A stretch of DNA of 64,000 nt from Escherichia coli. Lineage in GTDB: Bacteria > Pseudomonadota > Gammaproteobacteria > Enterobacterales > Enterobacteriaceae. Below the pieces are notes generated by a model. The model was not told where the DNA came from and did not search any database. It worked only from the letters and a program-made list of their open reading frames with translations. Positions within the stretch are counted from its first letter, which is position 1; every line of letters begins with the position of its first letter. Of the stretch, positions 39,652 through 42,600 are shown piece after piece. The translations under genes were made by a program, and so were the position numbers. The DNA lies in the NCBI RefSeq assembly GCF_003334815.1, contig NZ_QOWO01000004.1; one strand, 5' to 3'.

Positions 39652-42600
39652 ATGAGCAAACAATCACAGCATGTATTAATTGCCCTGCCCCACCCGCTGC
39701 TTCACCTGGTCAGTTTAGGTTTAGTCTCGTTTATCTTTACCCTTTTCTCGCTTGAGCTTTCGCAGTTTGGCACCCAACTCGCCCCACTGTGGTTCCCGAC
39801 GTCCATCATGATGGTGGCGTTTTATCGCCATGCCGGGCGCATGTGGCCGGGAATTGCGCTGAGCTGTTCGCTGGGAAATATCGCCGCATCCATCCTGCTT
39901 TTTTCCACCAGCTCGCTGAACATGACCTGGACGACCAGCAATATTGTTGAAGCCGTGGTCGGGGCAGTGCTGCTACGTAAATTGCTGCCGTGGTATAACC
40001 CCTTGCAAAATCTGGCTGACTGGCTGCGTCTGGCACTCGGCAGCGCCATTGTTCCACCTCTGTTGGGGGGTGTTCTGGTTGTCCTGCTGACACCCGGAGA
40101 CGATCCTCTCAGGGCATTTTTGATATGAGTACTGTCAGAATCCATCGGCGCTCTGGCACTGGTGCCGCTGGGATTGTTATTTAAACCGCACTATCTGCTG
40201 CGCCATCGCAACCCACGGTTGCTTTTTGAGTCGCTGCTCACGTTAGCCATCACACTGACGTTAAGCTGGCTTTCGATGCTGTATCTGCCGTGGCCTTTTA
40301 CTTTCATTATTGTGCTGTTGATGTGGAGCGCCGTGCGCCTGCCACGAATGGAAGCCTTTTTGATCTTCCTTACCACGGTGATGATGGTGTCGCTGATGAT
40401 GGCCGCGGATCCCTCCCTGCTTGCTACGCCGCGTACGTACCTGATGAGCCATATGCCGTGGCTACCGTTTTTGCTGATCCTGCTGCCCGCCAACATCATG
40501 ACGATGGTGATGTATGCCTTTCGTGCGGAACGCAAACACATTTCCGAAAGCGAAACCCGTTTTCGAAACGCGATGGAATATTCCGCCATCGGCATGGCAT
40601 TAGTGGGCACCGAGGGACAATGGCTGCAATCCAACAAAGCACTCTGCCAGTTTCTCGGTTACAGTCAGGAAGAGCTGCGTGGACTCACCTTTCAGCAACT
40701 GACCTGGCCGGAGGATCTCAATAAAGATCTCCAACAGGTTGAAAAGCTGATAAGCGGTGAAATAAACACCTATTCAATGGAAAAACGTTACTACAACCGC
40801 AATGGCGATGTTGTCTGGGCGTTGCTTGCCGTCTCTCTGGTGCGCCACACGGATGGCACGCCGCTCTATTTTATCGCTCAGATTGAAGACATTAACGAGC
40901 TAAAACGCACCGAACAGGTCAATCAGCAACTGATGGAGCGCATCACTCTGGCTAACGAAGCGGGCGGGATTGGCATCTGGGAGTGGGAGTTGAAGCCGAA
41001 TATTTTTAGCTGGGATAAGCGGATGTTCGAGCTGTATGAAATTCCTCCGCATATCAAACCGAACTGGCAGGTGTGGTACGAGTGCGTGCTGCCGGAAGAT
41101 CGCCAGCATGCCGAAAAAGTGATTCGTGATTCGTTGCAATCACGCTCGCCCTTTAAGCTGGAATTTCGCATTGCTGTGAAAGATGGCATCCGCCATATCC
41201 GCGCCCTCGCCAACCGGGTACTGAATAAAGAAGGCGAAGTCGAACGCCTGCTCGGCATTAATATGGATATGACTGAGGTTAAACAGCTTAACGAGGCATT
41301 GTTTCAGGAAAAAGAGCGCCTGCACATTACGCTTGATTCCATCGGTGAAGCCGTGGTCTGTATTGATATGGCGATGAAAATTACCTTTATGAATCCGGTG
41401 GCGGAGAAGATGAGCGGCTGGACGCAGGAAGAAGCGTTAGGTGTTCCGCTCCTGACGGTGTTGCATATTACTTTTGGCGACAACGGACCATTAATGGAGA
41501 ACATTTACAGTGCCGACACCTCACGTTCCGCGATCGAACAAGATGTGGTGTTGCACTGTCGGAGCGGCGGCAGTTACGACGTGCATTACAGTATTACGCC
41601 GTTAAGTACTCTGGACGGCAGCAATATTGGTTCGGTTCTGGTGATTCAGGACGTTACCGAATCACGCAAAATGCTGCGCCAACTTAGCTACAGCGCCTCC
41701 CATGATGCACTGACGCATCTCGCCAATCGCGCCAGTTTTGAGAAGCAACTGCGTATGCTGCTGCAAACGGTAAACAGTACACATCAGCGACATGCCCTGG
41801 TGTTTATCGATCTTGATCGCTTTAAAGCGGTGAATGACAGCGCCGGGCATGCGGCGGGCGACGCTTTGCTGCGCGAACTGGCGTCGTTGATGCTGAGTAT
41901 GCTGCGTTCCAGCGACGTGCTGGCGCGACTCGGTGGGGATGAATTTGGTCTGCTGCTACCAGACTGTAATGTTGAAAGCGCGCGTTTTATCGCTACACGC
42001 ATTATCAGTGCCGTGAATGACTATCACTTTATATGGGAAGGCCGTGTGCATCGGGTAGGTGCCAGTGCCGGGATTACCTTGATTGATGACAACAATCATC
42101 AGGCGGCAGAAGTGATGTCGCAGGCTGATATCGCCTGTTATGCCTCCAAAAATGGTGGACGGGGCCGGGTGACGGTTTACGAACCACAGCAAGCTGCCGC
42201 ACATAGCGAACGGGCGGCGATGTCGCTTGATGAACAGTGGCGGATGATTAAAGAGAATCAGTTGATGATGATGGCCCACGGTGTCGCTTCGCCGCGGATC
42301 CCGGAAGCGCGTAATTTGTGGCTGATTTCGCTTAAACTCTGGAGTTGCGAAGGCGAGATTATTGATGAACAAAAATTTCGTCGTAGCTTCAGCGATCCGG
42401 CACTTAGCCATGCTCTTGACCGACGGGTATTCCACGAATTTTTCCAGCTGGCCGCAAAAGCGGTTGCCAGTAAAGGCATAAGCATCGCCCTCCCCCTTTC
42501 CGTTGCCGGTTTGAGTAGCGCCACGCTGGTGAATGATCTGCTTGAGCAGCTGGAAAATAGCCCTCTACCACCACGGTTATTACACCTGATTATTCCGGCT

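Follow-up and report, generated by a model that had tools for sequence, protein, structure and literature searches.

The 64,000-nucleotide (nt) stretch of Escherichia coli contig NZ_QOWO01000004.1 (RefSeq assembly GCF_003334815.1) analysed here, referred to below as the window, was found to carry an interrupted copy of dgcE (yegE), a diguanylate cyclase gene. The dgcE frame occupies 39652..42969 on the plus strand and comprises 1105 codons and a terminal stop with one interruption, as established from its translation, synteny, the annotation of the same gene in E. coli 52F4 by the Prokaryotic Genome Annotation Pipeline (PGAP) and the length of the K-12 gene b2067. The interruption is a TGA at 40126..40128, also on the plus strand, which was read directly in the sequence, is in frame with the ATG at 39652 and is the sole internal stop, at codon 159. 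The open reading frames (ORFs) at 39652..40128 (158 amino acids, aa) and 40162..42969 (935 aa, GTG start), both plus strand, share one common frame in the ORF list. The gene order udk - dgcE - alkA - yegD is common to the window, 52F4 and K-12, and in 5,418 of 5,426 complete E. coli genomes the 3.7-kb stretch has its match in the dgcE gene located between these udk and alkA neighbours.

When the protein was repaired at Trp159, a Pfam scan recovered the full DgcE architecture across the break, all of it encoded on the plus strand. The MASE1 coding region (39706..40533, residues 19-294; PF05231, E=1.1e-35) is split by the stop and is followed by three PAS regions (40558..41667, residues about 303-672; matches to PAS, PAS_3, PAS_4 and PAS_9 at residues 303-416, 452-537 and 560-672), a GGDEF domain (41695..42165, residues 682-838; PF00990, E=3.8e-45) and an EAL domain (42340..42915, residues 897-1088; PF00563, E=1.4e-20), the last of which is described as degenerate in DgcE (PMC6510439). 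The active-site motif of the GGDEF domain, RLGGDEFGLL, is intact and lies within the downstream ORF; this active site is needed for DgcE function (PMC6510439). MASE1 has ten transmembrane segments in total (PMC6510439), and a count from the hydropathy profile places the stop in the sixth of them, a hydrophobic segment at about residues 153-173. The upstream ORF is thus an N-terminal remnant with approximately the first five MASE1 segments and the start of the sixth, as deduced from the ORF list, Pfam and hydropathy. The downstream ORF, whose GTG is codon 171 and whose translation is putative, encodes the last four MASE1 segments, the three PAS regions, the GGDEF domain and the degenerate EAL domain, and is labelled by gene callers as a separate 'diguanylate cyclase'. 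The locus, the domain order over about 1105 residues and the GGDEF motif are those of a DgcE orthologue, but the reading frame is not intact, and the locus is a dgcE pseudogene of the nonsense type rather than a functional member of the DgcE family.

The window reads ...TTG ATA TGA GTA CTG... at 40120-40134, which gives ...FLI*VLS... in place of the ...FLIWVLS... of K-12. Codon 159 is TGG in K-12 and, by alignment, in the two nearest intact alleles, those of the bovine strain C7 and the human strain B379, and the lesion is therefore a G>A substitution at 40128 that turns TGG into TGA (W159*), an in-frame stop one base away from the sense codon of the intact orthologues. The sequence-only reading had joined the two ORFs into a single dgcE frame of K-12 length, with the membrane domain continuing across a TGG to TGA change. 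This was borne out throughout: translation of 39652-42969 kept both ORFs in the same frame, K-12 dgcE likewise has 3318 nt and 1105 aa, the alignment with K-12, C7 and B379 identified the replaced codon as that of Trp159, and both the Pfam match to MASE1 (residues 19-294) and the hydropathy profile run through the stop. The window gene shares the udk-alkA locus, the length of 3318 nt and the Pfam architecture with K-12 dgcE, from which it differs at 57 nt and 11 aa, stop included; K-12 has TGG at codon 159, whereas a full-length protein is impossible by normal translation in the window. Apart from this one lesion the orthologous frame of 1105 codons is open, and the two ORFs are therefore no chance pairing. 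Window-private dgcE substitutions besides the stop are only two (I96S and one synonymous change), too few for a lineage-specific ratio of nonsynonymous to synonymous rates.

Other origins of the TGA were considered and rejected. A natural gene boundary in related strains, which the sequence-only reading had named as a way in which it could be wrong, is contradicted by a 41-nt probe unable to seed without the mutated A: it matched 52F4 and EcPNK004 only, that is 2 of 5,426 complete genomes, so that all but these two lack the A, and all intact alleles examined have TGG. Recoding of the UGA, as selenocysteine or otherwise programmed, is discounted since the orthologues carry TGG, the ancestral codon, and Rfam gave no match inside dgcE. 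Slippage at a phase-variable repeat does not account for the TGA, as the change is a substitution that lies outside any homopolymer or repeat.

Among complete genomes, an exact match to the 71 nt around the stop was obtained for 52F4 only. This strain is a calf isolate from Switzerland, and the window matches the reverse complement of positions 334268-398267 of its sequence NZ_CM147848.1, with eight substitutions in 64 kb and none after 37651. In 52F4, dgcE is annotated by PGAP as a pseudogene with an "internal stop". In a wider collection of NCBI and Logan assemblies the exact 158-aa fragment was present on 28 contigs and the exact 935-aa ORF on 24. Among the carrier contigs are those of the NCBI assembly GCA_965212685.1 and of the Logan assemblies built from the raw reads of ERR10679590 and SRR10024312; compared with the window over 9-10 kb, the three loci show 0, 2 and 3 single-nucleotide polymorphisms (SNPs). 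Because of these SNP differences of their own, the carriers are judged from their sequences to be distinct isolates of one lineage, all with the stop; local divergence among them is 1-3 x 10^-4 per site.

As to the differences between the window and 52F4, they lie at positions 808, 10956, 14741, 14848, 19676, 24273, 24565 and 37651. Six of the eight fall within the colanic-acid cluster (10956-24565), and three are nonsynonymous (wzxC L422F, cpsB I323V and gmd N55T). Given so few differences, the window probably derives from a sister isolate or from a separate assembly; their distribution suggests either a sister isolate or a small patch of recombination or selection in the cps genes.

These data bear directly on the possibility that the stop was introduced by faulty sequencing or assembly and that codon 159 of the strain is in truth TGG. 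Errors can take the form of single-base substitutions, and the 52F4 chromosome is derived from whole-genome shotgun data of unspecified platform. However, the exact truncated product recurs on the 28 contigs, in separate assemblies with private SNPs, the site contains no homopolymer, GATC or CCWGG, and the same change is present in EcPNK004, an unrelated complete genome of hybrid quality. The assembly is also not of error-ridden appearance, as only one other annotated pseudogene, an ISAs1 transposase remnant, occurs across the 64 kb. An error is extremely improbable and is excluded for practical purposes; the sense codon that resequencing might have revealed, according to the sequence-only reading, was not encountered in independent assemblies, including those made from raw read sets, which have the same stop.

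W159* is, with high probability, a genuine and vertically inherited dgcE allele of a small E. coli lineage that includes 52F4. Its intact progenitor was not recovered: the W159-repaired protein is absent from a collection of 15 billion proteins, as are further back-mutated versions (I96; I96 and I702; I96, I702 and D984). The local divergence of the carriers is therefore the sole indication of the age of the mutation. Carrier ERR10679590 differs from the window at two positions in 9.3 kb, both of them in dgcE and both nonsynonymous (G166D and L663P, at window-equivalent positions 40148 and 41639). These changes fit relaxed constraint after inactivation, though with two substitutions only they are anecdotal.

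The second complete genome with the stop is that of EcPNK004 (NZ_CP071439.1), a uropathogenic isolate from human urine (Dallas), in which dgcE is also annotated as an "internal stop" pseudogene and whose 158-aa fragment occurs on four further contigs. The G>A change and the codon, 159, are identical to those of the window, whereas the two dgcE genes differ at 113 of 3318 nt. Around the mutated base, position 477 of the coding sequence (CDS), EcPNK004 has private bases at CDS 414, 430, 501 and 516, so that its nearest private SNPs are at a distance of 47 nt on the upstream side and 24 nt on the downstream side. Recombination is unlikely to have carried the stop from one W159* lineage to the other, since the private bases at CDS 430 and 501 limit the exchanged tract to less than about 70 nt, and the most economical reading of the sequences is an independent G>A at the same base in EcPNK004. 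Such a coincidence is not remarkable, because dgcE is very frequently disrupted and can acquire a stop by any of 344 one-step nonsense substitutions, 97 of them transitions.

In K-12, the PdeR/DgcM/MlrA-csgD cascade has DgcE (YegE, b2067), of MASE1-PAS3-GGDEF-EALdeg architecture, as its 'master' diguanylate cyclase (PMC6510439). Translation of the window gene from the ATG at 39652 would end in the sixth of ten predicted MASE1 segments and yield a 158-aa membrane fragment, while the PAS-GGDEF-EAL part would not be produced in meaningful amounts. The cell would then be devoid of the diguanylate cyclase that relieves the inhibition of DgcM and MlrA by PdeR, and csgD, curli and phosphoethanolamine (pEtN)-cellulose would not be switched on. 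Published genetics is in line with this expectation. In K-12, deletion of MASE1 is equivalent to deletion of dgcE or mutation of the GGDEF motif and is null for CsgD, for csgB::lacZ and for macrocolony matrix, even though DgcE without MASE1 is expressed as a soluble and stable protein that can dimerise; MASE1 also serves the activating GTPase RdcA as its contact or docking site (PMC6510439). Soil isolates with the natural frameshift dgcE H486fs produce neither CsgD nor curli, and curli production returns when wild-type dgcE is supplied in trans (PMC6029578). Since the stop lies inside MASE1, MASE1 is essential in published work and a natural frameshift has been complemented, W159* is very probably a loss-of-function allele, for which a curli-low and matrix-low phenotype at low temperature may be expected from the published genetics. 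The DgcE-PdeR-DgcM module acts through the transcription factor MlrA, whose gene is annotated in 52F4 as intact and without a prophage insertion, and loss of DgcE should therefore be phenotypically visible.

Some observations weigh against a complete loss of function. UGA is the leakiest stop codon of E. coli and is misread by tRNA-Trp, a near-cognate through which small amounts of protein with exactly the original Trp would be made; in no carrier examined is the 2808-nt downstream ORF interrupted, which makes a truncated product conceivable; and the signal of relaxed constraint consists of just the two substitutions given above. In addition, cyclic di-GMP (c-di-GMP) was still increased by the dgcE of Shigella flexneri despite its premature stop (PMC11327459).

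The open downstream ORF raises the question of whether ribosomes ending at the UGA restart at GTG 40162 or later, for instance at GTG 40333, and make an N-truncated DgcE that still synthesizes c-di-GMP, perhaps freed from control by RdcA. GTG 40162 sits 34 nt past the stop, a distance within the reinitiation range of terminating ribosomes, as known from the restart fragments of lacI, but it has no Shine-Dalgarno sequence (pairing with 16S rRNA of -1.7 kcal/mol); the restart at this codon put forward in the sequence-only reading is thus formally possible and finds no support in the initiation signal. GTG 40333 (codon 228), with an upstream GGAG and -5.6 kcal/mol, is the only later in-frame start of this quality. 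A product begun at codon 171 would have its N-terminus in the positively charged loop LLFKPHYLLRHRNPR, followed by four transmembrane segments, and this topology would be compatible with a cytoplasmic catalytic part. An identical 935-aa ORF is kept in O157:H7, and the work on Shigella indicates that diguanylate cyclase genes with early stops can still raise c-di-GMP (PMC11327459). Those data, however, were largely obtained with a high-expression plasmid, and the bands seen were unlike the predicted restart product (PMC11327459). Further, complete removal of MASE1 was null for CsgD and matrix despite a stable and dimerising protein (PMC6510439), carrier ERR10679590 has gained L663P in the PAS region, and Rho-dependent polarity would be expected from the untranslated stretch. 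A product deprived of half of MASE1 is unlikely to do the normal job of DgcE, and a restart that preserves c-di-GMP synthesis is accordingly regarded as improbable.

The second escape from loss of function would be readthrough, with tRNA-Trp placing Trp at codon 159 often enough for full-length DgcE to run the pathway. The leakiness of UGA speaks for it, but where release factor 2 is efficient, readthrough typically amounts to no more than about 0.1-1%, the sequence downstream of the stop is the same as in the TGG strains, and an Rfam scan detected no stimulatory RNA element inside dgcE. Moreover, full-length DgcE is barely detectable on immunoblots of the wild type, is rapidly degraded and has to be synthesized continuously (PMC6510439). 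Sufficient readthrough is considered highly unlikely, and loss of function is retained as the preferred reading of W159*.

Natural dgcE truncations reported by others offer two points of comparison. The H486fs allele of soil-persistent phylogroup B1 strains (Somorin et al. 2018, PMC6029578) is, like W159*, a natural and clonally inherited truncation, but it truncates the protein in the PAS region (stop at codon 490) and is accompanied by PdeR E620K (PMC6029578). The dgcE gene of S. flexneri resembles that of the window in its premature stop upstream of an intact GGDEF domain and in its downstream in-frame starts; in contrast, its stop is at codon 366, after MASE1, and was caused by an insertion sequence (IS) of the IS110 family, and residual c-di-GMP synthesis was measured there (PMC11327459).

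Within E. coli, the closest functional analogue of the window allele is that of O157:H7, in which the same downstream ORF remains. The dgcE gene of O157:H7 EDL933 has a +1 insertion (CCTCTCAGG>CCTCATCAGG) at CDS 457, codon 153 (window-equivalent position about 40108). This break is 20 nt upstream of the Trp159 codon, in the same part of MASE1, and leaves the same 2808-nt, 935-aa ORF from the GTG at codon 171. It differs from W159* in being a frameshift ('frameshifted' according to PGAP) and not a nonsense mutation, in giving an N-terminal product of 177 aa with an out-of-frame tail, and in its lineage and allele background. The 2808-nt ORF is listed as the O157 marker 'dgcE_2' in a 2025 pangenome paper (PMC12472240); this marker is a pseudogene fragment and not a distinct gene.

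Damage to dgcE is widespread. The ranked list of 5,419 matching records was sampled at regular intervals; of the 60 records taken, eight had an indel or an IS in the first 749 nt of dgcE, and one further record had an ISVsa5 insertion farther into the gene. The 158-aa fragment belongs to a 90%-identity cluster with 210 N-terminal fragments of DgcE, 129-189 aa long; part of these are incomplete proteins at contig ends, others true truncations, including a frameshifted 177-aa form and a 137-aa form of S. flexneri. A dgcE pseudogene in nine pathogenic E. coli strains is mentioned in PMC11327459, which cites a survey for it. Frameshifts, nonsense mutations and IS insertions have thus inactivated dgcE repeatedly in natural E. 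coli and Shigella.

One site of recurrent damage is a run of G residues at 40065-40072 (codons 139-141), 55 nt upstream of the stop. The run is G6-T-G in the window, where it is in frame, and a synonymous T>G makes it G8 in many strains; lengths of G9 or G10, by which the dgcE frame is shifted, occur in enteroaggregative E. coli 042, Ec1115, EC21Z-101 and 23AR0922, and one G9 haplotype is present in 29 complete-genome records. In ECKH-257, ISEc20 (IS110 family) is inserted directly after the same run. The run looks like a slippage hotspot and is possibly a reversible switch, while it is also conceivable that some of the variants are long-read homopolymer errors.

The breaks located in the middle of MASE1 are the G8 to G9/G10 changes, the +1 of O157:H7, the two W159* events and the IS110-family insertion of ECKH-257, and after most of them the same 935-aa ORF remains, with its start in a cytoplasmic loop. 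It is a distant possibility, to which only a slight chance is given, that codons about 138-176 are a preferred and repeatedly used site at which DgcE is turned off or modified. If the 935-aa ORF were translated, DgcE would not be lost but converted into an RdcA-independent enzyme with four transmembrane segments, and the G-run would serve as a reversible switch of the curli and cellulose programme.

At its 3' side dgcE faces the convergent gene alkA, and no polar effect on this neighbour is expected because of that orientation. The convergent spacer is 38 nt (42970-43007) and alkA 858 nt in the window; in K-12 the spacer is 108 nt and alkA 849 nt, and EDL933 also has an alkA of 849 nt with a spacer of about 100 nt. 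The dgcE-alkA 3' junction thus has an indel of about 60-70 nt, which also alters the C-terminus of AlkA.

Elsewhere in the window, the pseudogene of an ISAs1-family transposase (669-1746, minus strand) is frameshifted and has an internal stop; this remnant is placed in the O-antigen gene cluster, between two glycosyltransferase genes. A single SIB RNA/ibsA toxin-antitoxin unit (49600-49748; Rfam SIB_RNA, 142 bits) lies between mdtA and yegL, where K-12 has two units, sibA/ibsA and sibB/ibsB. A pair consisting of a ParD antitoxin and a RelE-ParE toxin is annotated at 61726-62320 (plus strand), between yegP and trhP (yegQ). Two JUMPstart elements (minus strand, 9090-9128 and 33630-33668), which precede the operons for O-antigen and colanic acid, were matched by Rfam, as were the small RNA CyaR (63867-63952) and, before cpsG, a leader of the algC type (19018-19067); the JUMPstart elements, the algC-type leader and CyaR are expected features of the region.

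The lesion described here is already flagged in RefSeq for 52F4 and the phenomenon is published, so that W159* is an ordinary natural allele with no new mechanism. What is modestly new is that it is fixed in a lineage of several isolates and has apparently arisen twice. DgcE is the top trigger of the csgD, curli and pEtN-cellulose programme, and a lineage without it would be expected to form matrix-poor biofilms and to attach more weakly outside the host, while the other components of the cascade would be preserved (mlrA, at any rate, is annotated as intact). This should be useful when the phenotypes of the calf-associated lineage are interpreted, and the allele is a further instance, with independent recurrence at an identical base, of the repeated discard of DgcE by E. 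coli.

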